Assembly (NCBI GenBank): GCA_017960525.1
Contig: JAGCZA010000049.1
Coordinates: 8,911-72,910 of the forward strand
Direction of reading: 5' to 3'
Length of the DNA stretch: 64,000 nucleotides
Source of the DNA: Prevotella sp.
GTDB taxonomy: Bacteria > Bacteroidota > Bacteroidia > Bacteroidales > Bacteroidaceae
The position numbers and the translations under genes are program-made. The notes below the pieces were generated by a model. That model was not told the origin of the DNA and ran no database searches. It worked only from the letters and a program-made list of their open reading frames with translations. This document shows positions 4,869 to 61,739 of the stretch, in pieces (position 1 is the first letter of the stretch; each line of letters begins with the position of its first letter).

Positions 4869-5825
4869 ATGGGATTATTTGATTTTTTTAGTAAGAAGAA
4901 AAAGCAGGAAACACTTGACAAAGGCCTTGAGAAGACAAAAACTTCTGTGTTTGACAAGTTGGCCCGTGCCATTGCCGGCAAGTCAAAAGTGGACGACGAT
5001 GTGCTGGACAATTTAGAAGAGGTGCTCATCACCAGCGATGTGGGCGTGGAGACCACGTTGAAGATTATCAAGCGCATTGAAGAGCGTGTGGCACGCGACA
5101 AGTATGTTTCCACCTCTGAACTGAACGTGATACTGAGGGACGAGATTGCTGCCCTGCTGGCAGAGACTGGCAACGGCGATAGTGACGACTGGGATTTGCC
5201 TGTCGACCATCGTCCTTACGTCATCCTTGTGGTTGGCGTTAATGGCGTGGGCAAGACCACTACCATTGGCAAACTGGCTTGGCAGTTCAAGCAGGCCGGC
5301 AAGAAGGTCTATCTGGGCGCTGCCGATACGTTCCGTGCCGCTGCCGTTGAGCAGTTGTGCATTTGGGGCGAAAGGGTGGGGGTACCCGTGGTGAAGCAGC
5401 AGATGGGTAGCGACCCCGCCTCTGTGGCCTTCGACACGTTGCAGAGCGCCAAGGCCAATGGTGCCGACGTGGTGCTGATAGACACGGCTGGCCGCCTACA
5501 CAATAAAGTTGGCCTGATGAACGAGTTGAAGAAAATCAAGGACGTGATGAAGAAAGTGCTGCCGCAGGCCCCCGACGAGGTGTTGTTGGTGCTCGACGGC
5601 TCCACCGGCCAGAACGCTTTCGAGCAGGCCAAGCAGTTCGCCGCCGTCACCCAGATTACCAGCCTGGCCATCACCAAACTCGACGGCACGGCCAAGGGTG
5701 GCGTGGTCATCGGCATCAGCGACCAGTTGCAAGTGCCTGTGAAGTACATAGGACTGGGCGAAGGGATGGAAGACCTCCAACTATTCGACCGAAAAGATTT
5801 CGTCGACAGCCTCTTTAAAAATTAG
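4869..5825 (+). CDS. ftsY: SRP receptor FtsY
   Basis: GVNGVGKTTT, DTFRAAA, DTAGR and TKLDGTAKGG; start moved to MGLFDFF. Confidence 0.96.
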   Translation: MGLFDFFSKKKKQETLDKGLEKTKTSVFDKLARAIAGKSKVDDDVLDNLEEVLITSDVGVETTLKIIKRIEERVARDKYVSTSELNVILRDEIAALLAETGNGDSDDWDLPVDHRPYVILVVGVNGVGKTTTIGKLAWQFKQAGKKVYLGAADTFRAAAVEQLCIWGERVGVPVVKQQMGSDPASVAFDTLQSAKANGADVVLIDTAGRLHNKVGLMNELKKIKDVMKKVLPQAPDEVLLVLDGSTGQNAFEQAKQFAAVTQITSLAITKLDGTAKGGVVIGISDQLQVPVKYIGLGEGMEDLQLFDRKDFVDSLFKN

Positions 5826-5903
5826 GACGAACCAATTGCCCAAAGAGGACGAACTAATTAGGCAAAGAGGACGAACCAATTACCTAAAGAGGACGAACCA
5901 ATT
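5825..5903 (+). repeat. Four-unit tandem array, 22-bp period, core GGACGAACYAATT
   Basis: Cores at 5825, 5847, 5869 and 5891; variable bases between cores. Confidence 0.9.
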
Positions 5904-5945
5904 TTTACAGCCCCCTTGATTAATAGTTGAAATAGGATTTAACAG

Positions 5946-7286
5946 ATGATGACCATTGATTTCATTTCCTTAGGATGCTCGAAGAATCTCGTGGATAGCG
6001 AGATGCTGATGGGGCTGTTCGAGGCTGCGGGCTATCGTGTGACGCACGACAGTCCTGACCCGCAGGGTGAAGTGGTGGTTATCAATACGTGCGGTTTTAT
6101 TGCCGATGCAAAGGAGGAAAGCATCAACACCATCTTGGAACAGGTGCAACGAAAGGCAGAGGGGTCTGTGAAGCGCATCTATGTGATGGGCTGTCTCTCA
6201 GAGCGTTACCTTGCTGATTTGGAGGCAGAGATTCCTGAGGTCGATGGTTGGTTCGGGAAGTTCAACTACAAGGAACTCCTCTCTGTCATTGGCCATTCTC
6301 CATTGACCATTGACCATTCGGAAGTCGCAGCCAAAAATGTTCAATGTTCAATGGTCAATGGTAAATGGCAAAGACATTTGACCACACCTTCCCACTACGC
6401 CTATATCAAAATCAGCGAGGGTTGCGACCGCACGTGTGCCTATTGTGCCATCCCCCTCATAACGGGTCGTCATCAGAGCCGGCCTATGGAGGAGATTCTG
6501 GAGGAAGTGCGCCAATTGGTGAAGCGAGGCGTTGTGGAGTTTCAGTTGATTGCCCAAGAACTGACCTACTATGGTACAGACATTTACGGACGTCAGCGCA
6601 TAGCCGAACTGGTGGAGCAAATGGCCGACATTCAGGGTGTGCGCTGGATTCGCCTGCATTATGCTTACCCCACCCATTTCCCTTGGGAACTGGCCAGGGT
6701 GATGCGCGAAAAGAAAAACGTGTGCCGCTATCTCGACGTGGCCCTTCAGCACATCAGCGACAACGTGCTCGCACGTATGCGCCGCAATGTTAGCAAGCAG
6801 GAAACCATCGAGTTTATCGAAAGGCTGCGCCGCGAAGTGCCAGGTCTGCATCTGCGCACCACGCTGATGGTGGGTTTCCCAGGCGAGACGGAAGCAGATT
6901 TCCAAGAACTCATCGAGTTTACCAAATGGGCCCGTTTCGAGCGGATGGGCGCCTTTGCCTATAGTGAGGAGGAGGGCACCTGGTCGGCTTTGCATTATCA
7001 GGATGATGTACCTGAAGATGTGAAACAAAGGCGACTGGACAAACTGATGCGTGTGCAACAGAACATCAGCGCCGAGTTGGAGGCACAGAAGATTGGCACC
7101 GTCCTACCCGTTGTCGTAGACCGATTGGAAGGGCCTTACTATGTTGGACGCTCAGAATTTTGTTCGCCAGAAGTTGACCCGGAAGTACTGATTGCCGCCG
7201 ACAAGGCCGAAATGACGATTGGTGAGATGTACGACGTGAAAATAACTGGCTCTGAGGAGTTCGATGTCTACGGTGAGGTCGTCTAA
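5946..7286 (+). CDS. rimO: Ribosomal protein S12 methylthiotransferase
   Basis: SLGCSKNLVDSE, NTCGFI, radical SAM CDRTCAYC, C-terminal TRAM domain. Confidence 0.93.
   Translation: MMTIDFISLGCSKNLVDSEMLMGLFEAAGYRVTHDSPDPQGEVVVINTCGFIADAKEESINTILEQVQRKAEGSVKRIYVMGCLSERYLADLEAEIPEVDGWFGKFNYKELLSVIGHSPLTIDHSEVAAKNVQCSMVNGKWQRHLTTPSHYAYIKISEGCDRTCAYCAIPLITGRHQSRPMEEILEEVRQLVKRGVVEFQLIAQELTYYGTDIYGRQRIAELVEQMADIQGVRWIRLHYAYPTHFPWELARVMREKKNVCRYLDVALQHISDNVLARMRRNVSKQETIEFIERLRREVPGLHLRTTLMVGFPGETEADFQELIEFTKWARFERMGAFAYSEEEGTWSALHYQDDVPEDVKQRRLDKLMRVQQNISAELEAQKIGTVLPVVVDRLEGPYYVGRSEFCSPEVDPEVLIAADKAEMTIGEMYDVKITGSEEFDVYGEVV
6287..6370. repeat. Inverted heptamer-repeat element in-frame in rimO
   Basis: (CATTGAC-like)x5, AAGTCGCAGCCAAA, (AATGGTC-like)x5; 84 nt. 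Confidence 0.85.
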
Positions 7287-7547
7287 TACGCATGATTCAA
7301 CCTTCCACTCCTCTACAGTGCCGGTCTGCTGAAGTATGACGAAAAGGCAGGACGACTCACAAGGGCAGAAGGACTGACCAACCTAAGTGCACAATCAGTA
7401 AAGTGTGGGAATTGTTGTCGTTTGCCCGCACCTTTCATTAGGTTTTGCCGGAGAGAAAGTTAAAGTCAGGATGTTCTCCAAGAAACAGACGAACAGCCAG
7501 ACAAAACAAGAGAATAAAAGCTGAGATTGAAAAAAAAACAAAAAAAA

Positions 7548-7579
7548 TTTGGCTATATTCAGGAAAAACATTACCTTTG
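7548..7579 (+). promoter_or_regulatory. Promoter of tRNA pair
   Basis: TTTG-20 nt-TACCTTTG. Confidence 0.75.
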
Positions 7580-7607
7580 CACCCGCAAACAAATAAAACA
7601 CCAAATT

Positions 7608-7681
7608 GTCGGCATAGCTCAGTTGGTTAGAGTATCACCTTGACATGGTGGGGGTCCTTGGTCCGAATCCAAGTGTCGACA
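7608..7681 (+). tRNA. tRNA-Val(GAC)
   Basis: Acceptor GTCGGCA/TGTCGAC, anticodon loop TTGACAT, T-arm CTTGG-TCCGAAT-CCAAG. Confidence 0.9.
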
Positions 7682-7682
7682 C

Positions 7683-7717
7683 AAAAAGAGCGATGCATAC
7701 GGTCATCGCCTTTTTTT
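7683..7717 (+). terminator. Intrinsic terminator-like hairpin between the two tRNAs
   Basis: GCGATG/CATCGC stem followed by CTTTTTTT. Confidence 0.5.
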
Positions 7718-7727
7718 ATTCGCCCAA

Positions 7728-7809
7728 GCGCCTGTGGCGGAATTGGTAGACGCGCCAGACTTAGGATCTGGTTTCTCCCGAAGTGCAGGTTCGAGTCCTG
7801 TCAGGCGCA
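7728..7809 (+). tRNA. tRNA-Leu(TAG)
   Basis: Acceptor GCGCCTG/CAGGCGC, anticodon arm CCAGA-CTTAGGA-TCTGG, long variable arm, GGTTCGAGTCC. Confidence 0.95.
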
Positions 7810-7846
7810 CGCCGAATCGTTTTCTTTCAAATTTTTGGTTCGTCCA

Positions 7847-7878
7847 TTTGGTCATTTCACTTTTTATTTGTACTTTTG
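7847..7878 (+). promoter_or_regulatory. Promoter of 5'-nucleotidase pair
   Basis: TTTG-20 nt-TACTTTTG; abuts a single TTTGGTTCGTCCA repeat core at 7834-7846. Confidence 0.65.
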
Positions 7879-7903
7879 TTGCCGATTATTTGATTATTTG
7901 GCT

Positions 7904-8665
7904 ATGAGGAAAGCATTACTATTGGTAGGAATGGGGGCTGTCTGTCTTGCTGGCTGCAGGCAGCACTACGAACTCGCATCAGTCAGCCGCAGCCGCTTAG
8001 TGGTGGACAGCCGCTACGATGCGCAGGCCGACGCTGGGGCTGCAACATTCCTAGCCCCTTACAAGCAGAAAGTAGACTCGGTGATGGGCCCAGTGCTTGG
8101 CGAGGCGGCTCACGATATGGCCGCTGAACGTCCGGAGAGTGACCTGTCGAACCTGTTGCCCGACATTCTTTTGTATATGTCGAAGGATTACGGCGAGCAG
8201 CCCGACTTCGGCATTTATAATATTGGTGGCATCCGTGCGGCACTTTCCAAGGGTAAGGTGACCTACGGCGACGTGCTTGACGTGGCGCCGTTTGAGAACA
8301 AGATTTGCTTTGTCACCCTCACGGGCGACAAGGTGCTGGAACTGTTCAGTCAGATAGCCAGCCGAGGTGGCGAGGGTGTCAGCCACGGCGTTGAGCTTGT
8401 AGTGAGCCGTGACCACAAGCTGGTTTCTGCCCGCCTGAACGGGCAGCCTATTGACCCGGCCAAGAGCTATCGCATCACTACCATCGACTATCTGGCACAG
8501 GGCAACGACGGGCTGAAGGCGTTCAAGAGCGGCACCAACCTGAACTCACCCCAGGAGGAGCACAACAACTCTCGCTACGTGATAGGCAACTACTTCCGCG
8601 AAATGCAGAAGAAGGGCAAGGCTGTAGCATCGAAAGTGGAGGGAAGGATAAAGATTGAACATTGA
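7904..8665 (+). CDS. 5'-nucleotidase C-terminal domain lipoprotein
   Basis: Lipobox LAGC; NIGGIRA, PFEN and TIDYLAQGNDG; start moved to MRKALL because the longer ORF runs through the tRNAs. Confidence 0.85.
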   Translation: MRKALLLVGMGAVCLAGCRQHYELASVSRSRLVVDSRYDAQADAGAATFLAPYKQKVDSVMGPVLGEAAHDMAAERPESDLSNLLPDILLYMSKDYGEQPDFGIYNIGGIRAALSKGKVTYGDVLDVAPFENKICFVTLTGDKVLELFSQIASRGGEGVSHGVELVVSRDHKLVSARLNGQPIDPAKSYRITTIDYLAQGNDGLKAFKSGTNLNSPQEEHNNSRYVIGNYFREMQKKGKAVASKVEGRIKIEH

Positions 8666-8688
8666 AAATTGACCATTGAACATTGAAG
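8654..8688 (+). repeat. Heptamer array (ATTGAAN)x5 at gene junction
   Basis: ATTGAAC ATTGAAA ATTGACC ATTGAAC ATTGAAG. Confidence 0.8.
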
Positions 8689-8691
8689 ATT

Positions 8692-9537
8692 ATGAAGACT
8701 GGATATCTGTTTGGATTATTGTTTGTTTCTTTTTCGCTTGTCACTCCTGTTGGGGCGCAGAAGACGCTGACCATCCTGCACACCAACGACACCCACTCGT
8801 GCATTCTGCCCCTGAACAAGAATCTTGCCGATACCACCTTGGCCGGACGTGGCGGCTTCCTGAGACGCATAGCCCTGCTCAAAGAGGAGCGGCTGAAAGA
8901 CCCCGACCTGCTCTATTTCGACAGCGGCGATTTCTCGCAGGGCAGCAGCTACTACACCATGTTTCAGGGCGACGTGGAGATTGGGCTTATGAACCGTATG
9001 GGTGTTGATGCATCGACGATAGGGAACCATGAGTTCGACTTCGGGCTTGAGAATATGACTCGGTTGTTCCGCAAGGCCACCTTCCCCATTGTCTGTTCCA
9101 ACTACGACTTTGCTGACACGGAGTTGAAAGAGTTGGTGAAGCCATACATTGTCATCAAGCGCTGTGGCGTGAAGATTGGCGTCTTCGCCCTTTGCCCGCC
9201 ATTGGAGGGTCTGGTGTCAGCCAAGAACTATGGCTCGCTGCGTTTTCTGGATCCAGTAGAGGTGACGCAGCAGATGGTGGAGCTGCTGAAGGTCAGGAAG
9301 AAGTGCGACCTCGTTGTTTGCATCAGCCATCTGGGATGGGGAACTACCGAGTATCCCGACAACCGCATAATAGCTGCTACTAAGGGCGTAGACCTGGTGC
9401 TTGGCGGCCATAGTCACACCTATTTCAAGCAATTGGAGTATGTGGATAACGCCGATGGAAAAGCCGTTCCCGTCGACCAGAACGGAAAGCATGGCGCCTT
9501 TATCGGCAAGTTGCAGCTGACGCTGAAGAAACGGTAA
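8692..9537 (+). CDS. 5'-nucleotidase N-terminal metallophosphoesterase domain protein
   Basis: LHTNDTHS, DSGD, GNHEFD, SHLG and GGHSH motifs. Confidence 0.88.
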   Translation: MKTGYLFGLLFVSFSLVTPVGAQKTLTILHTNDTHSCILPLNKNLADTTLAGRGGFLRRIALLKEERLKDPDLLYFDSGDFSQGSSYYTMFQGDVEIGLMNRMGVDASTIGNHEFDFGLENMTRLFRKATFPIVCSNYDFADTELKELVKPYIVIKRCGVKIGVFALCPPLEGLVSAKNYGSLRFLDPVEVTQQMVELLKVRKKCDLVVCISHLGWGTTEYPDNRIIAATKGVDLVLGGHSHTYFKQLEYVDNADGKAVPVDQNGKHGAFIGKLQLTLKKR

Positions 9538-9549
9538 GAGACACGGGAA

Positions 9550-9577
9550 TAGGGGGTTCCCCAGAGGGCTCCCCCTA
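9550..9577. terminator. Hairpin between convergent genes
   Basis: TAGGGGG-TT-CCC-CAGA-GGG-CT-CCCCCTA. Confidence 0.5.
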
Positions 9578-9580
9578 CGC

Positions 9581-14928: not shown

Positions 14929-16893
14929 TCACTCCAGGGTGATGTTTACCAATTCGTCATAGTCGGCTGTGTCCACCAAACCGTCGCCGTTAATGTCGGC
15001 AGCGTTGTCTTTTGGCCTTTTGCCAATCAGCATATTGGCCAGTGCCACCAGGTCGGCACCGTCCACCAAGTCGTCTCCATTCAGGTCGCCCACTTTATTA
15101 GGAACAATGTTCTCGTCTACCCCCTCATATACAATTTCGTTGGCGTTCCTGGTGGTGATTTTTATTATATTGGTGTTTTGCGAGGGTACGAAGTGGAACC
15201 ACACTTTGGCTTTTTCGCCAGCCCCCACGTAGTAACCGTTTCCTGACACGACGATGCCTTCCTGATGGAGCCACAGTTCGCCGTTGTATTCCGACCCCAT
15301 ATTTTCCAGAGTGACTTCCAGTTCGCACAGCTGGCCGGGTTTGCGGCCTGTGGTGTACGAAAGGTCAGTTACGTTCAGATGGGTGTGCGGGCACTGGGTG
15401 AGCGTCAGAGTGTTGCCTGCAATGTGGGCGGAAATGTAGCGCAAGTCGCTGCCCACGGTGGTTTTCCAGTAGTTGGTGCCAGCCTCTGAGCAGACGAGCA
15501 CAATGCGATAGTCGCCGTCGGCCACGGTTGGGTCAATAGTGATCGTGTTGGTCAGCTTGACGTATTGGAGAGGCTGAAAGTTGTGGGCCTGCTGATAGAC
15601 GAAGAGCACCTTCACGATGTCGTTGCCCTTTACCAGCCCCAGGCCAAAGTCGGCCTCGTAGTTGCTGGTCATGGCGTTGAGCAGTTCCCAATAAATGCTG
15701 ATGCCGGTGAAGCCGTAGGCATTACGCTCAATCTGGTTGTTGCTTTTCAACTGTATGTCGCGTGTGGAGAGGTTCTTTTCCTCTTTGTATGTGGTGCCCG
15801 ATTGGTAGGGCTGCAAGTCGATGAGCATCTCCTGAGAGCGTGAATAGCCGTCGCGCAGTGTGACCCCGTCGGGCTTGCCGTCGGCCACGGCCAGCAGGAA
15901 GTAGCCGTCGCAGTTGGCCCTTGTCCAGCCCCAGTTGATGTGGTAGGTGCCGTCAGTATTGTAGCCGTCCACAACGAAGCTGTGTCCGGCATTGCTCGAC
16001 GTGACGCCCGAATAGAGTAGGGGGCGTCCGGCTTCCATCTCGGTGTAAGCTATTTGGTCCCATTGTGCTGCACCGTACGAGGCACGTATCATGCGGCGGG
16101 CCGTTGGCGCATAGTCAAAGTATTCGGCCAGAACTGCTGGCACTTCGTTGCCTGCGGCTTCGGTCAGGGTGGAGGAGTAGTCGGCCTTGATGGCCGCTCC
16201 GCAATAGGCTATGAGCTTGGCCGCTCCGTCGGTCTCCATATTGCCCCAGGGGAAGGAGGTGACGGGCTTTTCGGGCACGCCAATACCGTATTTCTTGGTG
16301 TTGTAGGCCGGTATAGCCTTCGTGGTGGCAGTCGGGTGGCGATGGTACGACATAATCTGGGCGATGGCCACTGGCACACAGCCGCCCATGCTGTTCTGCC
16401 CGTTGTGGTAGGGGCATTGGCTGTTGTAGGGCGCATGCTGGTTCCAATGGGTAGTCACCATTGGGGCAATGTTGTGGCGGTTGGCGGCTGATGCAGCTGC
16501 AACGGGCGTGCCTCCTTGGCCGAGCAAGGCAATCTCTTCGGCCATCCACTCCATCCATGCCTTCAGAGCAGGAGGCGTGGTCTCGTCGTCGCCGAGCGAA
16601 CCGCTGTCGGCATAGCCCAGTATGGCGGGTGTGCGGTCGTCAGCTGAGACGATGACGAAGCCCTCGCCGGAGCCGATGTTGAAGCCGTAGAGCTGTGGTG
16701 TCTCCACCGCCAGTTGCAGCGGCTGCAGTGCCTGCTGACGGCGGTGATGGTTGCTGTTGGCACTATGGTTCATCAGAGCCAGTTGGGCCAGTGCCTTTTG
16801 GCGGGCCTGCTCTTTGTCAATGGGGGCAGCCGAGAGGGCCAGCGAAAACAAGGCCAGCGCCAGGGTTCCCAAAAATCTTTGTTTCATATTCAT
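14929..16893 (-). CDS. C10 (streptopain-like) cysteine protease with prodomain and C-terminal dockerin
   Basis: GFVIVSADD prodomain, WNQ..PYN, GCVPVAIAQIM (Cys), GHSFVVDGY (His), INWGW; dockerin at 14929-15090. Confidence 0.88.
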   Translation of the reverse strand: MNMKQRFLGTLALALFSLALSAAPIDKEQARQKALAQLALMNHSANSNHHRRQQALQPLQLAVETPQLYGFNIGSGEGFVIVSADDRTPAILGYADSGSLGDDETTPPALKAWMEWMAEEIALLGQGGTPVAAASAANRHNIAPMVTTHWNQHAPYNSQCPYHNGQNSMGGCVPVAIAQIMSYHRHPTATTKAIPAYNTKKYGIGVPEKPVTSFPWGNMETDGAAKLIAYCGAAIKADYSSTLTEAAGNEVPAVLAEYFDYAPTARRMIRASYGAAQWDQIAYTEMEAGRPLLYSGVTSSNAGHSFVVDGYNTDGTYHINWGWTRANCDGYFLLAVADGKPDGVTLRDGYSRSQEMLIDLQPYQSGTTYKEEKNLSTRDIQLKSNNQIERNAYGFTGISIYWELLNAMTSNYEADFGLGLVKGNDIVKVLFVYQQAHNFQPLQYVKLTNTITIDPTVADGDYRIVLVCSEAGTNYWKTTVGSDLRYISAHIAGNTLTLTQCPHTHLNVTDLSYTTGRKPGQLCELEVTLENMGSEYNGELWLHQEGIVVSGNGYYVGAGEKAKVWFHFVPSQNTNIIKITTRNANEIVYEGVDENIVPNKVGDLNGDDLVDGADLVALANMLIGKRPKDNAADINGDGLVDTADYDELVNITLE

Positions 16894-17385: not shown

Positions 17386-17444
17386 AAAAAAAGATACTCT
17401 TTTCCGTCGGCCTCCTGTTCAGCCATTATCGGGCTTCTGAAAAA

Positions 17445-17522
17445 GGACGAACCAGACTCTGAGTTTGGACGAACCAAAGTAGGAGTTTGGACGAACCAAA
17501 CTCCTGGTTTGGACGAACCAAA
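17445..17522 (+). repeat. Four-unit 22-bp array, core TTTGGACGAACCAAA
   Basis: GGACG at 17445, 17467, 17489 and 17511. Confidence 0.92.
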
Positions 17523-17600
17523 CTTTTGGGCTTAAAAGAGGGGGTAGAAAAGCAGGGGGCGGCTTTTTGCTTTTTTTAGCGTGCTTCCGTTGCGAAAACA

Positions 17601-17658: not shown

Positions 17659-18516
17659 ATGATGAGACGACTTTTTATGGTACTTTCGCTGTCGCTGTGG
17701 CTGGCGCTCCCTTCGTTGGGGCAGGTGGTTGCCGACAGCGGGGCTGTGATTCCTGCCGATACTGAGGCGGTGGCGGCAGCCAGCATCGAGGAACTGATTG
17801 GCGACGAGGAAATGGCCGAGTTGGAGGAAATGGCTGCCAGCGAGGCTTCGCTGCACCAGCAGTTGAAGTCGAAGTTTGTGGAAGGTTCGACGGAGTTTAT
17901 GTCGCTTGTGGCGCTGGCCTTGGTGCTGGGCCTGGCTTTCTGCATTGAGCGCATTATCTATCTGACGCTGGCGGAAGTGAAGACCGGCAAACTGATGGCC
18001 GACATCGACAAGCGGCTGGAGCAGGGCGATGTGGAGGGCGCCAAGACGCTCTGCCGCGACACTCGTGGCCCTGTGGCGTCGGTGTGCTATCAGGGCCTGA
18101 TGCATGCTGACGAGGATATGTCGTCGATTGAGCGCAACATCGTGAACTACGGCAGTCTGCAGGCGGCGCGTCTGGAGCGTGGCTGCTCGTGGATTCGGCT
18201 GTTCATCGCCATTGCCCCTTCGCTTGGGTTCCTGGGAACCGTGGTGGGTATGGTGATGGCTTTCGACCACATTCAGGAGGCAGGTGACATTTCGCCCACC
18301 ATCGTGGCCGAGGGTATGAAGGTGGCGCTCATCACCACCATCTTCGGCATCATTGTGGCCCTCATCCTGCAGGTGTTCTACAATTTCATCATTGCGAAGA
18401 TTGACCACCTGACGGAGCAGATGGAAGAGGCTGCCATTACGCTGATGGATATGATTGGGAAAGGGAAGGCGCGCTTCGCTAGTGAGGGCGCTTCGCTAGT
18501 GAATAGAGAAAAGTGA
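17659..18516 (+). CDS. exbB: MotA/TolQ/ExbB proton channel protein
   Basis: IAPSLGFLGTVVGM and ALITTIFG. Confidence 0.88.
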   Translation: MMRRLFMVLSLSLWLALPSLGQVVADSGAVIPADTEAVAAASIEELIGDEEMAELEEMAASEASLHQQLKSKFVEGSTEFMSLVALALVLGLAFCIERIIYLTLAEVKTGKLMADIDKRLEQGDVEGAKTLCRDTRGPVASVCYQGLMHADEDMSSIERNIVNYGSLQAARLERGCSWIRLFIAIAPSLGFLGTVVGMVMAFDHIQEAGDISPTIVAEGMKVALITTIFGIIVALILQVFYNFIIAKIDHLTEQMEEAAITLMDMIGKGKARFASEGASLVNREK

Positions 18517-18544
18517 AGAGTGAAGAGTGAAAAGTGAGTGAAAG
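18471..18544 (+). repeat. GCGCTTCGCT head x2 plus (AGTGAAG) heptamer array
   Basis: GCGCTTCGCTAGTGA at 18471 and 18488, heptamers from 18512. Confidence 0.8.
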
Positions 18545-18678: not shown

Positions 18679-19278
18679 ATGTTTAAGAGCCGGAAAAAGC
18701 GGAGCCTGCCCGAACTGAACACCACATCGACAGCCGACATCTCGTTTATGCTGTTGATTTTCTTCCTTGTCACCTCGTCGATGGACACTGACAAGGGACT
18801 GGCCCGCCAATTGCCCGCTCCAGAGAATCCTGTCGAAGAGCAGGAACTCATCGTGAAGAAGCGTAATGTGCTGCTGCTCACGCTTGACGGTGACGACCGC
18901 CTGACGTGCAATGGTGACAGCATCAATACCTCTCAGTTGACAGAGCGCGTGACTGATTTCGTGGCCAATGCCGCTGGCGACCCTGCGCTGCCTGAACTGA
19001 GTGAGCGCGACGTCCATCTACTGGGCCGCTGCAAGGTGAGCGACCGCCACGTCATCTTCTTGCGTGTGAGCCGTGAGACCAGTTACAATGCCTATTTCGA
19101 GATGCAGAACGCCATTGTGGCTGGTTACAACCAGTTGCGCGACGCGCTGGCCCAAAGCCGCTTCGGTCACGCCTACGCGCAATGCAATGCCGAGGAGCGT
19201 GATGCTGTGGCAATGGTTTATCCGCAGCGCATCAGCGAGGAGATTGAGAGCGCTTCGCTAGTGAACAGTGAAGAGTGA
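18679..19278 (+). CDS. exbD: ExbD/TolR family protein
   Basis: LPELNTTSTADISFMLLIFFLVT. Confidence 0.85.
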   Translation: MFKSRKKRSLPELNTTSTADISFMLLIFFLVTSSMDTDKGLARQLPAPENPVEEQELIVKKRNVLLLTLDGDDRLTCNGDSINTSQLTERVTDFVANAAGDPALPELSERDVHLLGRCKVSDRHVIFLRVSRETSYNAYFEMQNAIVAGYNQLRDALAQSRFGHAYAQCNAEERDAVAMVYPQRISEEIESASLVNSEE

Positions 19279-19301
19279 ATAGTGAAGAGTGAAAGGTGAG
19301 G
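19250..19301 (+). repeat. GCGCTTCGCT head plus (AGTGAAN)x5-6 array
   Basis: Same 16-nt head as 18488; supplies the exbD stop codon. Confidence 0.8.
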
Positions 19302-29313: not shown

Positions 29314-29453
29314 CATCCGTCCAAAGCAAAAGGAGGCTTATTTCGGACTTAAAGTTTGCTCCGTCCAAACCCGCAAATTCTCGAGAGAATTTATGCGTTT
29401 GGACGAACCTTTCTACCCGTAAGGTTAGTCCTTTGTTTTGGTTTGGACGGATG
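29314..29453. repeat. Nested palindromic element built on the TTTGGACG core
   Basis: Outer CATCCGTCCAAA/TTTGGACGGATG; inner CGTCCAAAC/GTTTGGACG enclosing AAATTCTC/GAGAATTT. Confidence 0.7.
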
Positions 29454-35976: not shown

Positions 35977-36738
35977 ATGGCAAACGACTATTTCCGCTTC
36001 CAGCGATTCACCATCCGACAGGGTCAATGTGCCATGAAAGTGGGCACCGACGGCACCCTGCTGGGCGCGTGGGCATTGCTGCCTGCCGCCGCTGAGACGG
36101 AGGCTCCGCTCGTGCTCGACATAGGCACGGGCACGGGGCTGATAGCCCTGATGATGGCGCAGCGCTATCCGCAGGTGAGGGTAGTGGGCATCGACATTGA
36201 CGATGCCGCCGTCAGTCAGGCGCGGGCCAATGTGGCCGAATCGCCCTTTGCCAGTCGGGTGAACATCGTCGAGGGCGATGTGGTGCAGCCCGATATTCTG
36301 GCTGGCCAGTCTTTCGACGCCATCGTTTGCAATCCGCCCTTCTTCGAGGACGCACTCGTATGTCCTGACGACAGGCGCACCCTGGCCCGTCACGCTGTGA
36401 CCCTCAGTTTTGCTCAACTTATGGGCAGGGCACGCCAGTTACTGACCGACGGAGGCGAACTCTCCGTTGTGGTGCCGGCGGATGGGAAGGCCCGTCTGGA
36501 AAGTGAGGCCGCTCTGGCTGGCTTGTTCAAGGTACGCCAGTGCAGCGTATTCACCTCGTCGCTCAAGCCGCCCCGCCGATTCCTGATGGCTTTCCGCCGT
36601 CACCCCGCCGAGTTGGAACTTTCAGAGTTGGCCATCGGCTCCGACCAATATCGCACTCTGATGGACGGCTTTACCCCCTCTCAGAGTTTGGACGAACCAA
36701 ATGTTTTAGAAGAATATCACACATTACTAACGACTTAA
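35977..36738 (+). CDS. trmN6: tRNA1(Val) A37 N6-methyltransferase family
   Basis: FRFQRF, MKVGTDGTLLGAW, DIGTGTG and NPPFF; start moved to MANDY. Confidence 0.85.
   Translation: MANDYFRFQRFTIRQGQCAMKVGTDGTLLGAWALLPAAAETEAPLVLDIGTGTGLIALMMAQRYPQVRVVGIDIDDAAVSQARANVAESPFASRVNIVEGDVVQPDILAGQSFDAIVCNPPFFEDALVCPDDRRTLARHAVTLSFAQLMGRARQLLTDGGELSVVVPADGKARLESEAALAGLFKVRQCSVFTSSLKPPRRFLMAFRRHPAELELSELAIGSDQYRTLMDGFTPSQSLDEPNVLEEYHTLLTT
36687..36701 (+). repeat. Single TTTGGACGAACCAAA core inside the 3' end of trmN6
   Basis: Exact core with flanks matching the other arrays. Confidence 0.8.
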
Positions 36739-42787: not shown

Positions 42788-42802
42788 GTTAGGGGCTTAA
42801 TG

Positions 42803-44158
42803 TTACTTGTTAGGTACTGCACGCACATTGTCAATCTTGATGATGGGGGTACACTCGGTTCCCTTGATGCCACCACCGACAACAAAGATGAGGAGACTGG
42901 TGAAGTCGCTTGACGAGAGACTGCCGGTAGCAGCTCCGCCGCTCATACCATACTTGAACTCACTGATGGGCAGCGTGACGGTGATCCACTCGTCGGCTGT
43001 GTCGTAGCTGCCGGTAGCTTCCCAAGGACGATAGATGCCGCGTGGCAGCTCGTCGTTGTTGAAGTAGGTATTGTTACAACCAGCGAGCAAATTGCCATAG
43101 ATGTCCTTTACCTTCGGGTCGTTGCTACCCATAGAAATCTTGGTAACGCCACCCACGATGAACTGCATGGCACCAGACATCCAAGGATTGGCCTTGGGGA
43201 TGCACATCTCAAACTTGTACGACATGTTCATGTAGTCGCTGAAGTCAGCAAGGTCGGTCAGGCGCACGCCGTCGCCCTGATAGTCTTCGGGGTCCTGCCA
43301 GTTGCCTGGCCAGTACTCGAAGGCGAAGTTTCCGTCGTCCCAAGAGCCATCCTCGTCAAGTGTCGCATTGCCCAGGATGAGGTACTTGCCGGAGATGGGA
43401 TTCTCAGCGTCGGTGATGGTCAGGCCGTTGTGCCATCCGTGGCATCCCAGGACGGCCCCCGTCACGGCGTTGCCGTTGTCGAAGTCGAACAGCATACCGC
43501 GTGAGTCTAAGAAGCGGAACGATGACTTGCCGGAGCCATATATTGACTTCACGGTAATCTGTCCTTCAGTTGTGCACTCAGGCACAACAAATGAAACGGT
43601 ACTGCGCGAAGCATTGATACTCTTGATCTCCGCCGTCTTTCCGTCAGGGAATGTGATGGTGAGTGGCACGTTGGGGTCGTCGATGAAGTAGCTGCCATAG
43701 ATAGTGGCCACAGAGCCGGGAGTAGCATATTCGCACGACATCTGAGACACGACAGGAGCCGGAATGACGATGTGGAAGTCATACGTCAGCGTGTCGTGAC
43801 CTTCAGTAATCAGATAGATTTTGTCGGTCACCAGGTCGGGAATGTCGCTGGGAACCTGGACAATCAGCGTGTTTTCAGTAATGAAGCTTGTGTTCAGGAT
43901 GGCCTTCTTGTCGTTGAAGTACATCTGCTGGATGCTGGTCAGATTAGAACCGACAAGGCAAATAGTTGCCTGGGGATAGGCCTCCACAAGCAGCGAGTCG
44001 CTTGCGCTGGCACTGGCCGGGCGGATGTAATTGATGGTGGGAGTTCCATCTGTCAGTTCAAACTCATCGGGCTGGTCTTTGCAGGAGTTGAGCGTTGCGC
44101 ATGTAGCGCAGCCTACGAGCCAGACCGCAAGTAAGTCGTTGAAATATTTGGTTTTCAT
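42803..44158 (-). CDS. Surface glycan-binding protein (SGBP-B-like) lipoprotein
   Basis: Lipobox LNSC; IPT/TIG domains; Trp-rich C-terminal domain; directly downstream of susD. Confidence 0.75.
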   Translation of the reverse strand: MKTKYFNDLLAVWLVGCATCATLNSCKDQPDEFELTDGTPTINYIRPASASASDSLLVEAYPQATICLVGSNLTSIQQMYFNDKKAILNTSFITENTLIVQVPSDIPDLVTDKIYLITEGHDTLTYDFHIVIPAPVVSQMSCEYATPGSVATIYGSYFIDDPNVPLTITFPDGKTAEIKSINASRSTVSFVVPECTTEGQITVKSIYGSGKSSFRFLDSRGMLFDFDNGNAVTGAVLGCHGWHNGLTITDAENPISGKYLILGNATLDEDGSWDDGNFAFEYWPGNWQDPEDYQGDGVRLTDLADFSDYMNMSYKFEMCIPKANPWMSGAMQFIVGGVTKISMGSNDPKVKDIYGNLLAGCNNTYFNNDELPRGIYRPWEATGSYDTADEWITVTLPISEFKYGMSGGAATGSLSSSDFTSLLIFVVGGGIKGTECTPIIKIDNVRAVPNK

Positions 44159-44190
44159 AATTTTCAATTTTCAATTTTCGATTTTCAATC
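44159..44190 (-). repeat. Heptamer array at susD/SGBP junction
   Basis: (AATTTTC)x3 GATTTTC AATC on plus. Confidence 0.8.
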
Positions 44191-45964
44191 AAAAGGATAT
44201 TCCGCTCAGGTCATAGTCTTCCGGAGCCTCCATTAGCAGTGGGTTGTAGTCGATGTCGGCTGAAGGAAGGGGAATGGTGAAGCTGCGGTCGGTCACGTTG
44301 GGTGCGGTGGCCTGCGTGTCGTAGTTGTGCTTCGAGGGGTCTACGTTGAAGGCACCACTCTCGTAGTAGGTCTTGTAGAGGTCGTTCAGGCCGTTGTAGC
44401 CATTGCGGCGTTGTGCCTTGATTTCGTTGATGGCCCCCTGCGGGTCGTAGTAGTAGCGGCGCACGAAGTCATACCAGCGGTCGCCCTCGCAGGCCAGCTC
44501 CAGGCGGCGCTCCTTCCAGATGTCCTCCCAGGTGATGCTGGTGGGATACTGATAGCCCTTCACCGAGCGGTGGCGCACCTGATAGAATGCATCGAGCACC
44601 TTTGGGTCGCTTGACGAACTGCTGTTGCCCATAGCGGCCTCTGCATAGATGAGATAGACATCAGCCAGGCGCAGGATGTGGGTGTAGAGTGCGTATGCCA
44701 TACGTCCGGCTGGGCTGCCGTAGAAGCGTGCGTGGTCGGCATTGTTGCCGTAGAGGTGCTTCACCTCGCCGGCTCCTGTGGGGCTTTCCCACTGTCCGGG
44801 TCCGGGGTGTCCGTCGGCTTCATAGCCGCCATAGCAATATTTCACCAGTTCGAAGCCGCCACAGTCGGCATAGAAGTAGTCGTATACATCGCCGGCCATC
44901 ATCAGCGTAGCCTTGCGGCGTTCGTCAACATTTTGTCGGTTCAGGCTCAGGGCATTCTCGTTGAAGGCATCCTGCAAGTCAACAGAAGGTCCTCCCCAGC
45001 CTCCCCAGTCATCACCGTTCTCATCGAAGCCCTCGATGACGAGGTCGCTCTGGAAGGTGTTCTGGCAGGTCCAGTGTGCTCCCATAGTCCAGGCCCATGA
45101 GAAGAGAGCCTCGTCGCATACGTTGTTCTCGCCACGGAAGATGTCTGAATAGTTTTCCATGAGCACGCGGCCGCTGTTCTCGATGACATCAAGAGCCAGG
45201 TCGGCTGCCTTCTTCAGGTCATCGGCATTGCGCTGGTGGGCCGTACAGGTGATGTAGCTGTAGGTGCCGGGATTGTAGGTGGTGTTGCTCTCGCTGAAGC
45301 CGGACTTTGTCAGATAGACCTTGGCCAGCAAAGCCTTGGCGCAGTACTTGTCTATGCGGCCATTGTTCGTGGGGTCTTTTTCAGGCAGCAGCTCGATGGC
45401 TTTCTCCAAAATCTTGATGATGTAGTCATACACATTGCTGATCTTGGCCTTGTGAAGAGAGGTCGACTGCTGGCTGTTGATGGTGGCAGCCGGGTCGTGG
45501 ACGATGGGCACGGCACCAAACGAGCGCACCAGGTAGAAATAGGCCATAGCCTTCCATGCCAGGCACTCGCCCATTGTGGCGTTCTTCACAGCCTCAGAAG
45601 CGCCGGTGGCGTTCTTGATGTTGTTGTAGACTGTGGTGGCGTGGGTGTTCACGGCCCAGAGCGAGGCACTCATGTTGGCCAGGTCCTGGTCGGAGCCGTC
45701 GAGGGTGAAGGTGAGATAGGGTGAGCTGCCCATGTAGTAGTTGCCCGACATCACCTCGCCAGTCTTGAAGAAGCCGCGCTGGAAGTCGTACCAGGGCGAG
45801 TTGTACAGATAGTTCACGCCCGCACGGCATTGTGCATCTGTGCTATAATAGTTGGAAGTATCATAGCCGTCTTCCGTTGGTCTGTCGAGATAGTCATCAC
45901 ACGATGATACTGCCAGACCCATCAAAGCAATGCATGCTAAAGATTTGATATTATATAGTTTCAT
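44189..45964 (-). CDS. susD: SusD/RagB nutrient-binding lipoprotein
   Basis: Lipobox VSSC; ILRLADVYLIYAEA and ERRLELACEGDRWYD. Confidence 0.93.
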   Translation of the reverse strand: MKLYNIKSLACIALMGLAVSSCDDYLDRPTEDGYDTSNYYSTDAQCRAGVNYLYNSPWYDFQRGFFKTGEVMSGNYYMGSSPYLTFTLDGSDQDLANMSASLWAVNTHATTVYNNIKNATGASEAVKNATMGECLAWKAMAYFYLVRSFGAVPIVHDPAATINSQQSTSLHKAKISNVYDYIIKILEKAIELLPEKDPTNNGRIDKYCAKALLAKVYLTKSGFSESNTTYNPGTYSYITCTAHQRNADDLKKAADLALDVIENSGRVLMENYSDIFRGENNVCDEALFSWAWTMGAHWTCQNTFQSDLVIEGFDENGDDWGGWGGPSVDLQDAFNENALSLNRQNVDERRKATLMMAGDVYDYFYADCGGFELVKYCYGGYEADGHPGPGQWESPTGAGEVKHLYGNNADHARFYGSPAGRMAYALYTHILRLADVYLIYAEAAMGNSSSSSDPKVLDAFYQVRHRSVKGYQYPTSITWEDIWKERRLELACEGDRWYDFVRRYYYDPQGAINEIKAQRRNGYNGLNDLYKTYYESGAFNVDPSKHNYDTQATAPNVTDRSFTIPLPSADIDYNPLLMEAPEDYDLSGISF

Positions 45965-45977
45965 AATTGTATCTTAT

Positions 45978-46019
45978 AATTTTCAATTTTCAATCTTCAA
46001 TGTCCAATGGTCAATCGTC
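45978..46019 (-). repeat. Heptamer array at susC/susD junction
   Basis: AATTTTC AATTTTC AATCTTC AATGTCC AATGGTC AATCGTC. Confidence 0.8.
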
Positions 46020-49000
46020 AGAATGACAAGTTAAGACCAAATGAATAGACTGTCGGTGACGGATAGCGTCCGTTGTCGAGTCCATACACATAACCGTTGG
46101 AATCTGCCGTAGAGGCACCCACTTCAGGGTCGTAGCCGTCATAACCGGTGATGGTGAAGAGGTTCTGGATGTTGCAATATACACGGACGTTGTCCACTCC
46201 CACGTGCTTGAGCCATTTCTTGGGAACGGTGTAGCCCAGCGTGATATTCTTCATACGCAGGTAGCTGCCGTTTTCCACATAGCGGTCGCTGATGCGGCGG
46301 TTGTTGTTCGGGTCGTTCAGACGCACAGCAGGCAGTGAGTTCGGCTGTGCCACCTGCACATTGTCGATGTCGTCATACCAGTTCCACACCGTGCCGGAGT
46401 TGTTGCCCACGTAGCCGTTGCTGTAGTCCTTGTTGGGATCGATGGCCGTGATGACGGAGCGGTCTCTGATGGTGGCTGCCTGGTTCTGCCATACGCTGTT
46501 CATGCCGTCGAGCTTCATGCGCAGGTAGTTGAACACCTTGTTGCCGTAGGAGCCGTTGATGAAGATGCTCAGGTCGAAGTCCTTATAGCGGAAGGTGTTG
46601 GTCCAGCCAAAGGTGTACTTTGGCATGGGGTTGCCCAAGTACGTGCGGTCGTTCTCGTCGATGACACCGTCGCTGTTCAGGTCCTTGTACTTGATGTCGC
46701 CCACCCACACAGTATTGTAGCGGTTGAAGCCGTTGTTGCCGTAAGCCACAGGCTTTGCAGAGGTTTCGATGTCCTCCAAACTGGTGTAGACACCATCGGT
46801 GACATAGCCGTACCACTGGAACAGAGGCTGCCCGACGTCGCTCTTCGACACGATGTCGGTCCACATGCCATAGCCGTAGATGGAGGCGCTGGCCGTTCCT
46901 GCCAATTCCTTCAGCTTGTTCTTGTTCCAAGAGATTTCAAACTCCGAGTCCCAGGAGAAGTCCTTGGTCGAAATGGGATGGGTGTTCACAGTCAGCTCAA
47001 AACCGGTGTTTTCAATCTTGCCATAGTTACCCCAGGGGGCTGCAAGGGCGGAAGAGCCGTTGCCGCTGGTGCCCATGTATGAAGGCAGCTGCATAGGCAT
47101 GAGCATGTCGTTGGAAACCTTTTTGTACCAGTCGACAGTGATGTTAAACTTGTTGTTCAAGAAGCCCAAGTCCAGACCAATGTTGGTCTGCTCCTGCTTC
47201 TCCCAGTGGATTTCACGGTTGGCGATACGGGCGGGACGCTGCGAAGTGCCGAGGCCCGACTCCATCACGCTCAGGTCTGAAGCCCACTTGCCACCGCCGA
47301 TGTTCGAGTTACCTGTCTGGCCCCAGCCGATGCGGAGCTTGCCGTTGGAAAGCCACTTCTCGGCAAAATTCTTGATGAATGCCTCGTTTGAGAAGCGCCA
47401 GGCAGCAGCAAAAGAGTGGAACGAACCCCAGCGCATGTCAGGACCGAAGTTCGAGCTACCGTCGCGACGGAAGGTATAAGTCAGCAGGTAGCGGTCGTCA
47501 TAATTATAGGTTTCGCGCGTGAAGAACGACGACATAGCTGCCGAGCCGAAACCTGAACCAATCTGAGGCTCACCAGTACCGAGTGCCGGATTCTGGATGC
47601 TGTTTGAAGGCAGGTCGGTGTTGAACAGGCTTGCATAGTCCCACTTGCTTTCCCAGCACTCCTGGCCAACCATAGCCGAGAAGCCGTGCTTGCCAATCTG
47701 GCCGTTATAAGTCAGGTAGTTCTTAATCTGTATGAACTGACCTGTGGTCTTCTGCAGGCGAGCCTGGTTCTGAGCCTTCGTCCAGTTGCCAAGGTTCACA
47801 GAGGGTTCAAAGGTGGAGGCACGGTCCCAGTTGAAGTTGTAGCCTATTTCAGTATGCCACACCAGCCCCTTCATAAACGTCACCTCCCCAAAGAGGTTTC
47901 CGTTCAGCAGGTTGCGCTTGTAGCGGTAGTCGTTCATCAGGGCCAGGGCCACCGGGTTGGGGTTGCTCATGCCTTCACGCGAAACCGAAGTGTAGCCACC
48001 CTCAATGTTGTAGATGGGCTGATAGGGTGGGGTGGTCAGCGCGTAGGTGATGACACCCTCGTCCTGGTCGGCCTTCAGCAGCTTCTCCGATGTGTGCGAG
48101 TAGGTGGCGTTCAGGCCCAGCTTCAGCCAAGGCTTCAGTTGCGCGTCCAAGTTCACGCGGGCTCCATTACGCATAAAGTTCGAGCCGATGATGGTACCGT
48201 CCTGGTCCATATAGTTGGCACTGACATAATATTTCACCGCATCCGTACCACCCTGGGCACTCACCTGGTGCTGGTGCTGCAGAGCTGTACGGAAAATGGC
48301 ATCCTGCCAGTTCGTGCCCTTGCCCAGCAGACTGGGGTCGCTCAGGCTTTCGTCCTCAGTGGCAGCCCCTTGGGCCACCATATCATTATAGAACTCGGCA
48401 AACTCGCGCAGGTTCAGCATGTCAATGCGCTTTCCCTGATACTGCCAGGCCACCATGCCCTCATAGCTGAACTTGGCCTCACCCGTCTTACCATGCTTTG
48501 TCGTAATCAGAACCACACCATTGGCACCCTGGGCACCATAAATTGCAGTGGCAGAGGCATCCTTCAATATCTCCATACTCACAATGTCGTTGGGGTTGAT
48601 GGTCGACAGGGGCGACACCGATGAAACGGAACCGTTACCTAAACGGTCTCCCAGACCGACCGACGCTCCCGACGAATTGCCGTTGTTCCAGATCACACCG
48701 TCAATCACATAGAGAGGCTCAGCACCTGCATTGATCGTGGCCTGGCCACGCACGCGAATACTCGACGAAGAACCGGGGGCACCAGAGGTCTGGACTGCTG
48801 TCACACCAGCGACACGGCCTGCAAAAGCCTGGTCCAGGTTGGTGATAATCGAACCCTTCATCTTCTTCTCGTCCATACTTCCCGTGGCACCAGCCACGTC
48901 GCTCTTCTTCATCGTACCATAACCCACTACCACCACCTCGTTCAGCATTTGGCGGTCTTCGACAATCGTAATGGCATAGTCGCTCTGAGAAGTAATCTTC

Positions 49001-49305
49001 ACCTCCTTCGGAAGGTAGCCAACGTAGGTGATGACCAGCGTCTGGCCCGGCGAAGCCTGTAGCGAGAATTTACCGTCAAAGTCGGTCACAACACCAGTGT
49101 TCGTGCCCTTCACTTTGATGCTGGCACCAATCACCGGCCCCATCGCATCGCTCACCGTACCAGTGATCTTCTTCGTCTGTTGCACTTCATTGGGAAGAGG
49201 CAAGGCGCTTCCCCCCGGAGCAGCAGACAGCCGTGGCGAATAGCCAAGCACAGAAGCCAGGCAAAAAGTCGCCACCATACAATTTTTACTGCAATTTAAA
49301 TTCAT
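46018..49305 (-). CDS. susC: SusC/RagA TonB-dependent transporter
   Basis: EVVVVGYG, PLYVIDG, ILKDASATAIYGAQGANGVVLITTK and C-terminal GLNLSF. Confidence 0.96.
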   Translation of the reverse strand: MNLNCSKNCMVATFCLASVLGYSPRLSAAPGGSALPLPNEVQQTKKITGTVSDAMGPVIGASIKVKGTNTGVVTDFDGKFSLQASPGQTLVITYVGYLPKEVKITSQSDYAITIVEDRQMLNEVVVVGYGTMKKSDVAGATGSMDEKKMKGSIITNLDQAFAGRVAGVTAVQTSGAPGSSSSIRVRGQATINAGAEPLYVIDGVIWNNGNSSGASVGLGDRLGNGSVSSVSPLSTINPNDIVSMEILKDASATAIYGAQGANGVVLITTKHGKTGEAKFSYEGMVAWQYQGKRIDMLNLREFAEFYNDMVAQGAATEDESLSDPSLLGKGTNWQDAIFRTALQHQHQVSAQGGTDAVKYYVSANYMDQDGTIIGSNFMRNGARVNLDAQLKPWLKLGLNATYSHTSEKLLKADQDEGVITYALTTPPYQPIYNIEGGYTSVSREGMSNPNPVALALMNDYRYKRNLLNGNLFGEVTFMKGLVWHTEIGYNFNWDRASTFEPSVNLGNWTKAQNQARLQKTTGQFIQIKNYLTYNGQIGKHGFSAMVGQECWESKWDYASLFNTDLPSNSIQNPALGTGEPQIGSGFGSAAMSSFFTRETYNYDDRYLLTYTFRRDGSSNFGPDMRWGSFHSFAAAWRFSNEAFIKNFAEKWLSNGKLRIGWGQTGNSNIGGGKWASDLSVMESGLGTSQRPARIANREIHWEKQEQTNIGLDLGFLNNKFNITVDWYKKVSNDMLMPMQLPSYMGTSGNGSSALAAPWGNYGKIENTGFELTVNTHPISTKDFSWDSEFEISWNKNKLKELAGTASASIYGYGMWTDIVSKSDVGQPLFQWYGYVTDGVYTSLEDIETSAKPVAYGNNGFNRYNTVWVGDIKYKDLNSDGVIDENDRTYLGNPMPKYTFGWTNTFRYKDFDLSIFINGSYGNKVFNYLRMKLDGMNSVWQNQAATIRDRSVITAIDPNKDYSNGYVGNNSGTVWNWYDDIDNVQVAQPNSLPAVRLNDPNNNRRISDRYVENGSYLRMKNITLGYTVPKKWLKHVGVDNVRVYCNIQNLFTITGYDGYDPEVGASTADSNGYVYGLDNGRYPSPTVYSFGLNLSF

Positions 49306-49347
49306 ACGGTTTTTTTTGTTAGTTGGTTTTTAATTAATATTATTGTA

Positions 49348-49414
49348 AATTTTCAATCTTCAATCTTTCCCCCCCCTAAACAGGGGGGCAAGGGGGGTCT
49401 AATCTTCAATTCTC
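49348..49414. repeat. Heptamer array interrupted by a G/C palindromic element (49369-49400)
   Basis: AATTTTC AATCTTC AATCTTT [C8 TAAACA G6 CAAGGGGGGTCT] AATCTTC AATTCTC. Confidence 0.7.
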
Positions 49415-49425
49415 ACTTTCGAGTG

Positions 49426-49433
49426 CAAAAGTA
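49426..49433 (-). promoter_or_regulatory. -7 box upstream of susC
   Basis: TACTTTTG on minus. Confidence 0.55.
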
Positions 49434-49546
49434 AGCATTTTTCTTTATACCACATAACTTTAATTTGCTTTTTATTGACACTTTTATTAAAAATTTGTGA
49501 TAATCCTACCCAACAGACCAATATCTCACCAAAAACTTCCTAAAAA

Positions 49547-49627
49547 TTTGGTTCGTCCAAACTCCCACTTTGGTTCGTCCAAACTCCTGTTTTGGTTCGT
49601 CCAAACTCCTACTTTGGTTCGTCCAAA
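49547..49627 (-). repeat. Four-unit 22-bp array, inverted relative to 17445
   Basis: TTTGGTTCGTCCAAA at 49547, 49569, 49591 and 49613. Confidence 0.93.
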
Positions 49628-61738: not shown

Positions 61739-61739
61739 A

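Follow-up and report, generated by a model that had tools for sequence, protein, structure and literature searches.

A 22-bp near-palindromic tandem repeat dispersed between the genes of a Prevotella genome

Three tandem arrays of a short near-palindromic repeat (arrays 1 to 3), designated family A, lie between genes in a 64,000-nucleotide stretch, referred to as the window, of the genome of an uncultured Prevotella (C126:8911-72910 of the metagenome-assembled genome (MAG) G000, which comprises 3.97 Mb in 146 contigs at 53% GC). We favour, with moderate confidence, the view that family A is a non-coding, non-autonomous, selfish interspersed minisatellite, akin to repetitive extragenic palindromic (REP) sequences and bacterial interspersed mosaic elements (BIMEs) or to MITEs (miniature inverted-repeat transposable elements), which a putative factor would mobilise in trans while slippage, template switching and exchange would reshape it. 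Its restriction to one lineage, the empty orthologous sites, the differential amplification, the exclusion from genes and the random orientation together argue for a selfish interspersed repeat rather than for a regulon or a signal of chromosome organisation. A preliminary description of this stretch had put forward both possibilities. The mobile miniature element agrees with the narrow range, the empty sites in the closest relative (G257), the differing core subfamilies and the random placement outside genes; the regulon or chromosome-organisation signal finds no support, since the arrays are not conserved in related species, show no orientation bias and have unrelated neighbours.

Abundance, placement and structure of the repeat

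A search of G000 with the core query GGACGAACCAA, allowing at most one mismatch, finds 518 cores at about 217 loci. Neighbouring cores are spaced by 22 bp in 268 of 300 cases and by 44 bp in the other 32, with no other value encountered. After rescue of degenerate units there are 155 arrays, spanning three (80), four (54), two (17) or five (4) units and making up 0.28% of the genome; the preliminary description had given exactly four units for each array, which this range of spans reveals to be a local accident. A further 62 cores are solitary, and the 28 of these that fall inside genes are probably chance matches. Family A arrays break short-read assemblies and copy numbers are probably underestimated as a result: in G000, 11 arrays lie within 400 bp of a contig end where 4.6 would be expected, and two Logan contigs (L150 and L151) end inside array 2 (window 17445-17524).

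Avoidance of genes is pronounced, 148 of the 155 arrays lying outside genes although 87% of the genome is coding according to the crude codon-usage caller by which its 2825 genes were called. The arrays occur in divergent (46), tandem (77) and convergent (14) gene contexts, near what the available intergenic space would give, and the earlier impression that they sit mostly in promoter regions is not upheld. In tandem contexts the arrays lie at a median of 33-40 nt from the upstream stop codon and 60-133 nt from the downstream start codon, and this closeness to the upstream stop fits selection against the disturbance of promoters and leaders. Judged by the core, arrays in tandem contexts have the same sense as the genes in 42 cases and the opposite sense in 35. 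No strand bias is apparent against local gene strand (67:52) or against GC skew (63:56), a weak proxy on a fragmented MAG. The neighbouring genes are functionally unrelated and include housekeeping, iron-uptake and polysaccharide-utilisation genes.

The consensus unit, AGTTTGG-ACGAA-CCAAACT-NNN (7+5+7+3 nt; AGTTTGGACGAACCAAACT), has two inverted arms of 7 nt, between them the conserved loop ACGAA (5 nt), and a further loop of 3 nt whose sequence varies; the arms and conserved loop form a 19-nt near-palindrome. Conservation is almost complete in the core GGACGAACCAAA and lower in the left arm, and the 3-nt triplet carries no information. That the core is an inverted repeat had been recognised in the preliminary description; the 5-bp stem and 7-nt spacer proposed there are replaced by 7-nt arms with loops of 5 nt and of 3 variable nt. 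Arm orientation alternates along an array, so that every arm is able to pair with either neighbour. Array ends take the form AAA(T/G)TTTGG...CCAAA(C/T)TTT, or more generally AAAnTTTGG...CCAAAnTTT, an inverted sequence that arises because the unit itself is symmetric, and many arrays finish in a T-run. A subfamily of about five copies has outer inverted repeats of 17 bp (CCCAAATnGGCCATTAG...CTAATGGCCnATTTGGG), which give it the classical shape of a MITE.

The interior of the arrays bears the marks of rapid rearrangement. Spacer 7-mers comprise about ten common types, each of which is found also as its reverse complement (CTCATAG/CTATGAG, CTACCAG/CTGGTAG, CTCCCAG/CTGGGAG and CTCCCAC/GTGGGAG). 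We read these loop flips tentatively as the outcome of template switching at the inverted arms, which is a known mutational process. As many as 129 different spacer haplotypes occur in 137 arrays, which makes the arrays combinatorial rather than copies of a few masters, and 13.6% of adjacent spacer pairs are identical where 3.2% would be expected, an excess that marks local duplication of units. Core orientation is uniform and direct in 137 arrays and mixed in 17, where cores are flipped in perfect register; in-register flipped cores are likewise found among the arrays of G257. Three hybrid arrays (C43:3358, C63:4998 and C79:32263) contain units of a second family, B (AGTTAGAAGGTATATAACT), which run in 22-bp register into family A.

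Lineage restriction, probable mobility and resemblance to described repeats

Family A has a narrow taxonomic range. A two-core pattern is absent from all of 40 relatives (24 congeners and 16 from other families), and among 400 species of the genus, searched with up to two mismatches, true arrays are present only in G257, the closest relative of G000 (ftsY 83% identical, compared with about 70% for other relatives). The family is equally absent from 28 genomes representing 19 other genera of the bacterial family. A metagenome scan produced a sole contig, from the Joint Genome Institute (JGI), that belongs to a relative about 80% identical and carries a two-unit family A array; a pattern scan of the genome-contig collection gave only chance 11-bp microsatellites. 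Beside the two-unit array the JGI contig carries, at its end (L156:1-135), eight tandem 17-bp units (GGATTTCTGTTGGGCTG).

G257 has 51 units, which agree with those of G000 in arms and period; most take the form GGACGGAGCAAA or GGACGAAGCAAA, each of them a minority variant in G000. Three orthologous sites were compared between the two genomes, two of them intergenic and empty in G257 and one occupied by a genic array that both share. The ftsY-rimO junction measures 5 bp and lacks an array in G257, as against 120 bp in G000, and at C98:18366 G000 carries a clean 90-bp extra segment where the orthologous site of G257, 75 bp in length, has no array. The shared array, of 66 nt and three units, is in frame and translated within a cobB-like (cobB/cbiA-like) amidase, in which it accounts for an insert of about 22 residues between the two domains (G000 C29:~7480-7560; G257 C50:~16790-16850); in G000 its units are diverged and one of them is flipped. 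This shared array, together with the divergent subfamilies, indicates that family A predates the split of the two species and then expanded differently in each lineage.

The data show that family A, as sets of two to five head-to-tail 22-bp near-palindromic units, originated in a narrow Prevotella lineage and was inserted in either orientation at about 155 intergenic sites, arrays persisting only where genes were left unbroken and start codons were not crowded. Fast turnover followed insertion: whole units were duplicated, the loops that the inverted arms enclose were inverted, and units were traded with other arrays, those of a second family included. Gain and loss of units would proceed by replication slippage or unequal exchange. 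The 19 of 22 positions that are conserved may be those recognised by a putative propagation machinery, the 3-nt loop being free to vary; such a machinery would act in trans and is probably a protein that reads the TTTGG-N5-CCAAA dyad. Effects on neighbouring genes, such as the stop codon that an array supplies to ftsY, would be incidental.

Several observations weigh against a selfish mobile origin. Only two empty intergenic sites are open to comparison, and five nearly clonal assemblies containing array 2 show no polymorphism in its presence or unit number. No mobilising enzyme was found in G000. There is no target-site duplication, the direct repeats between an array's own flanks (2.72) being no longer than those of shuffled partners (2.69 +/- 0.15), nor does the complementarity of own flanks exceed that of shuffled controls, and no GC-hairpin partner was detected beyond controls. 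As many as 233 of 308 flanks are unique, most arrays therefore having no leader or tail, and the arrays are not the near-identical master copies that a recent transposon burst would give. Finally, an invariant core beside a free 3-nt loop, with a 22-bp geometry common to the bacterial family, would be expected equally of an array on which a host protein docks.

Candidate sources of mobility in G000 were considered in turn. A link to RAYT/IS200 transposases was rejected because the sole PF01797 (Y1) gene (C28:1268-1489) is degenerate, with DRVH in place of the HUH motif and no clear Y motif, and stands on a contig without units. The region of this gene (C28:1100-1700) adjoins a palindrome rich in G+C (CCAGGGCATCGCCCTGG) that belongs to a further repeat family. 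Ends of the rve/Tn7/Mu type, which carry 22-bp transposase sites, were set aside as well, the genome having only two rve genes, which form an IS3-like element. Inverted core pairs flanking a transposase gene were not found in G000, a 146-contig MAG of the kind from which insertion sequence copies are usually lost, and within the genome no paralogue of an empty site displays a sharp junction.

The closest described analogue of family A is BrickBuilt, a minisatellite or MITE of Porphyromonas gingivalis (Klein et al., 2015; PMC4596501). Both are confined to single species or their near kin within the Bacteroidales, dispersed and strictly or largely intergenic, both lack an internal transposase, and in both the body consists of 22-23-nt units repeated in tandem without spacers (PMC4596501). 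They differ in that the BrickBuilt unit is of 23 nt (AGAYCATARTATCCTCTCRTRTG), non-palindromic and unrelated in sequence to the 22-nt unit of family A; in that BrickBuilt occupies 19 loci with 1 to 22.8 units as against about 155 loci with 2-5 units; and in that BrickBuilt possesses a leader and a tail with inverted repeats matching ISPg elements, whereas most family A arrays have neither.

Family A also resembles the REP, BIME and REPIN sequences associated with RAYT transposases (Bertels and Rainey, 2011, PMC3116915; Di Nocera et al., 2013, PMC3733652; Quentin et al., 2018, PMC6006769), which are likewise short extragenic near-palindromes in hundreds of copies, lineage-specific and vertically inherited, sometimes arrayed and occasionally translated inside genes. 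Membership of that class was nevertheless rejected on three features. REP sequences carry a GTAG/CGTC tag at the foot of the stem (PMC3733652), which is missing from either foot in family A, where CGTC is found only within the loop/stem junction on the reverse strand; a REP system has a repeat-flanked RAYT gene, whereas the genome of family A offers one degenerate Y1 gene without flanking units; and REPINs are head-to-head dimers, in contrast to the direct tandem repeats of family A. Typical REPs, moreover, have longer and stronger stems than family A, whose stems measure 7 bp and are rich in A/T. The Rickettsia palindromic elements (RPEs; cited in PMC3733652) are similar in that palindromic repeats are tolerated in frame within protein-coding genes, as in the cobB-like enzyme, yet they are single elements of about 100-150 bp from a different phylum rather than arrays of 22-bp units. 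The statement in the preliminary description that no named family could be assigned thus still stands, Rfam giving no match and the features of BrickBuilt and REP being only partly shared.

Interspersed repeats of the Bacteroidales have barely been described, with BrickBuilt as the main example, and family A adds 155 loci in Prevotella of the rumen/gut type. Its construction from naked tandem near-palindromic units, with modular exchange of cores, frames and loops, is unusual, and its arrays can provide stop codons or in-frame peptide inserts. If the number of units varies, they would make good markers for strain typing.

Alternative explanations and the 22-bp period

Foremost among the alternatives is recruitment of the arrays by the host as a docking platform, in which a dimeric or oligomerising protein would read TTTGG-N5-CCAAA and CCAAACT-N3-AGTTTGG every two helical turns and the arrays would serve nucleoid organisation, insulation or regulation, their spread being secondary. 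Such a role would account for the 22-bp register of all 300 neighbour spacings, the conservation of 19 of 22 positions beside 3 uninformative ones, the retention of the core at 5825 despite a change of frame, as at other sites with variant frames, and the uniform core orientation of 137 arrays as against 17 mixed ones although spacers flip freely; a 22-bp geometry, about three units and mostly dyad-symmetric units also recur in unrelated families and genera. It is harder to reconcile with the absence of family A from about 400 congeners and the empty orthologous sites of the nearest relative, with the lack of any rule on where the arrays sit or which way they point with respect to promoters or replication proxies, and with the functionally unrelated neighbours. 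Dozens of unrelated unit sequences per genome would, in addition, require as many specific proteins, and no candidate protein was found. We regard docking as possible though unlikely. An array of operators for a transcription factor was rejected, given the absence from about 400 congeners, the empty orthologous sites of G257 and the unconstrained orientation and distance of the arrays.

Plasmid iterons, like family A, consist of 3-7 direct repeats, each about 22 bp long and placed in phase with the helix; the gamma origin of R6K has seven 22-bp iterons. Iterons, however, form one cluster beside a rep gene or origin, and the roughly 155 chromosomal loci of family A have no rep, par or ori context, so that identity with iterons was dismissed.

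The period itself extends beyond family A. A survey of the whole of G000 with Tandem Repeats Finder (TRF) gives 200 loci at period 22, of which 196 are intergenic, family A accounting for 140 of the loci and other families for 60; the corresponding numbers at periods 20, 23 and 24 are 5, 5 and 20, the last mostly genic. Family B (AGTTAGA-AGGTA-TATAACT-NNN) agrees with family A in its 7+5+7+3 frame, its spacer triplets and its AACT-NNN-AGTT junctions, family C (TTTGCAGCG-NN-CGCTGCAAA-YR) is arranged as 9+2+9+2, and family D (AAAGAcATTACGGCAATTnnnn) is not palindromic and provides the frame that holds the family A core at 5825. A sharp peak at period 22, made up of unrelated units, is present in G257 and further genomes as well. 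In 400 kb of G288, another Prevotella, TRF returns 28 rows for period 22 but only 4 for period 21 and 3 for period 23, and in G012 period 22 has 6 rows where periods 20, 23 and 24 have none. Three other genera of the bacterial family likewise show the peak (period-22 rows in G418, 6 of 31; G422, 14 of 65; G425, 6 of 27), and the peak is absent from 277 kb of G025, a single outgroup control from another family of the order. In all there are about 32 unit families at this period, mostly with a dyad-symmetric core. They share a profile into which family A fits, namely an exact 22-bp period, 2-8 units, intergenic location and a unit sequence that varies by family and species. No described 22-bp repeat of Prevotella or Bacteroides was found in the literature, most subscription journals lying outside the search.

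A 22-bp period in unrelated unit sequences suggests a common ruler, mechanistic or in helical phase. The sharpness of the period in unrelated units of at least four genera points to a common mechanistic or structural cause, so far unnamed. Family A might accordingly be described as one output of a putative 22-bp ruler common to the bacterial family, either an enzyme that builds or copies DNA stepwise or a protein scaffold keeping DNA in a register of two helical turns, a suggestion that we put forward tentatively and regard as unlikely. If it were true, the ruler would make or maintain short intergenic arrays of any sequence, among which family A would have spread to about 155 sites and come to be read as a docking array. 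In G288, long intergenic regions at L113:11460-11881, L102:11918-12098 and L105:2099-2275 are filled with back-to-back tandem arrays of 22-23-bp units of several kinds, and one pair of array types recurs at two loci.

A related alternative holds that the arrays form in place, a process common to the bacterial family building 22-bp arrays in intergenic DNA across which the family A sequence spreads by biased gene conversion or recombination. It owes its weight to the hybrid arrays, in which families B and A meet in perfect register, and the core of family A within a family D frame at 5825, the combinatorial assortment of spacers, the junctions and spacer triplets shared by families A and B and the frequency of unrelated 22-bp arrays across the bacterial family are in keeping with it. 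Conversely, the two orthologous intergenic sites of G257 (5 bp and 75 bp) are without an array of any kind, which indicates that arrays do arrive at previously empty sites, and 22-bp units are very short substrates for homologous exchange. Formation in place is, on this evidence, distinctly improbable, and insertion of a selfish repeat remains the reading that we prefer.

A function in RNA, with tandem hairpins acting as terminators or attenuators, as stabilisers of mRNA 3' ends or as small RNAs, is the least credible of the alternatives and very improbable: a 7-bp hairpin is possible in every unit, single-stranded whole arrays are predicted to fold as one long nested hairpin (array 2, z = -6.1 and -4.7), and arrays often lie 33-40 nt past stop codons and end in a T-run, but there is no orientation bias, 46 arrays lie between divergent genes, array 1 folds poorly on the plus strand (z = -1.4) and has no hairpin, and Rfam has no family that covers the arrays at gathering or permissive thresholds. 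The arms tell against it also. TTAGG variants put an A.A mismatch into 98 units out of about 470, C.C and G.G mismatches occur often and without compensation, and neither strand shows a preference for G.T over A.C; judged from these variants, arm pairing does not look selected and family A does not look like a structured RNA. Scans for sigma-70 promoters and terminators gave nothing beyond shuffles, the one terminator-like site across arrays 2 and 3 included. The Bacteroidetes promoter motif (TAnnTTTG / TTTG) was discounted, its spacing, read by eye, not being that of the units.

Arrays and related elements within the window

The three arrays at 22-bp spacing noted in the preliminary description are confirmed by the core scan, in which GGACGAACCAA (at most one mismatch) has 15 matches in the window against 1.27 expected, a number reached in none of 100 shuffles, and by TRF, which assigns period 22 to all three. 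Array 1 (5820..5906, plus strand), with cores at 5825, 5847, 5869 and 5891 (+) spaced by exactly 22 bp, lies between the ftsY stop and the rimO start, FtsY and RimO being identified by Pfam, and its first unit provides the TAG stop codon of ftsY. Its four 22-bp units have the divergent frame AAAGAGG-ACGAAC-CAATTnCCn, in which the family A core is retained without the arm palindrome (AAAGAGG-core-CAATTnCCn) and which matches that of family D units.

Array 2 (17440..17526, plus strand; cores at 17445, 17467, 17489 and 17511 (+)) and array 3 (49544..49630, minus strand; cores at 49548, 49570, 49592 and 49614 (-)) each comprise four canonical units, AGTTTGG ACGAA CCAAACT NNN in array 2, again with cores exactly 22 bp apart. 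As first described, both lie between divergent genes, array 2 between fur and exbB and array 3 between those for a SusC-like receptor and an AXE1 (CE7) esterase, and Pfam supports these identities. The 39-nt stretch said to be common to 17.46 kb and the reverse strand at 49.6 kb is indeed an exact match (17462, +; 49591, -). Array 2 has the same sequence in five independent metagenome assemblies and is thus not an assembly artefact; in relatives with 91% and 86% identical Fur the contigs end before the fur/exbB array site. The gene adjoining fur (window 14929-16893; L152:508-2466) codes for a cysteine peptidase of the C10 type that carries an I69 inhibitor domain and, in a relative, has a weak dockerin match, which is unusual for the Bacteroidota.

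Two solo units correspond to the single cores originally placed near 7834 and 36687. One (7830..7850, minus strand; core at 7835) follows the end of a tRNA gene (7728-7809) by about 20 nt; in reverse its core reads GGTTCGTCC and is similar to the T-arm consensus of tRNAs, GGTTCGAATCC, probably by coincidence. The other (36685..36704, plus strand; core at 36690) falls within the last ~50 nt of a methyltransferase open reading frame (35977-36738). What had been taken for a nested variant at 29314 does contain related sequence, but is a separate palindromic element of about 140 nt (29314..29453, without strand), whose arms bear inverted TTTGGACG(G/A)A half-units and which includes GACGAACC at 29402; it is a low-copy relative with about five partial copies and not an array.

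Tandem arrays of heptamers are a further feature of G000, with about 186 loci at period 7 and 84 loci at periods of 14 to 35 composed of heptamer units, the recurrent ones being AATGGTC (30 loci), AACTCTC (26) and AAATCGT (22). Within the window they occur at 6287-6368, 18498-18537, 19260-19299, 44159-44189, 45978-46008 and 61733-61781. About half of the heptamer arrays of G000 are genic, and G257 and G015 have arrays of like kinds.

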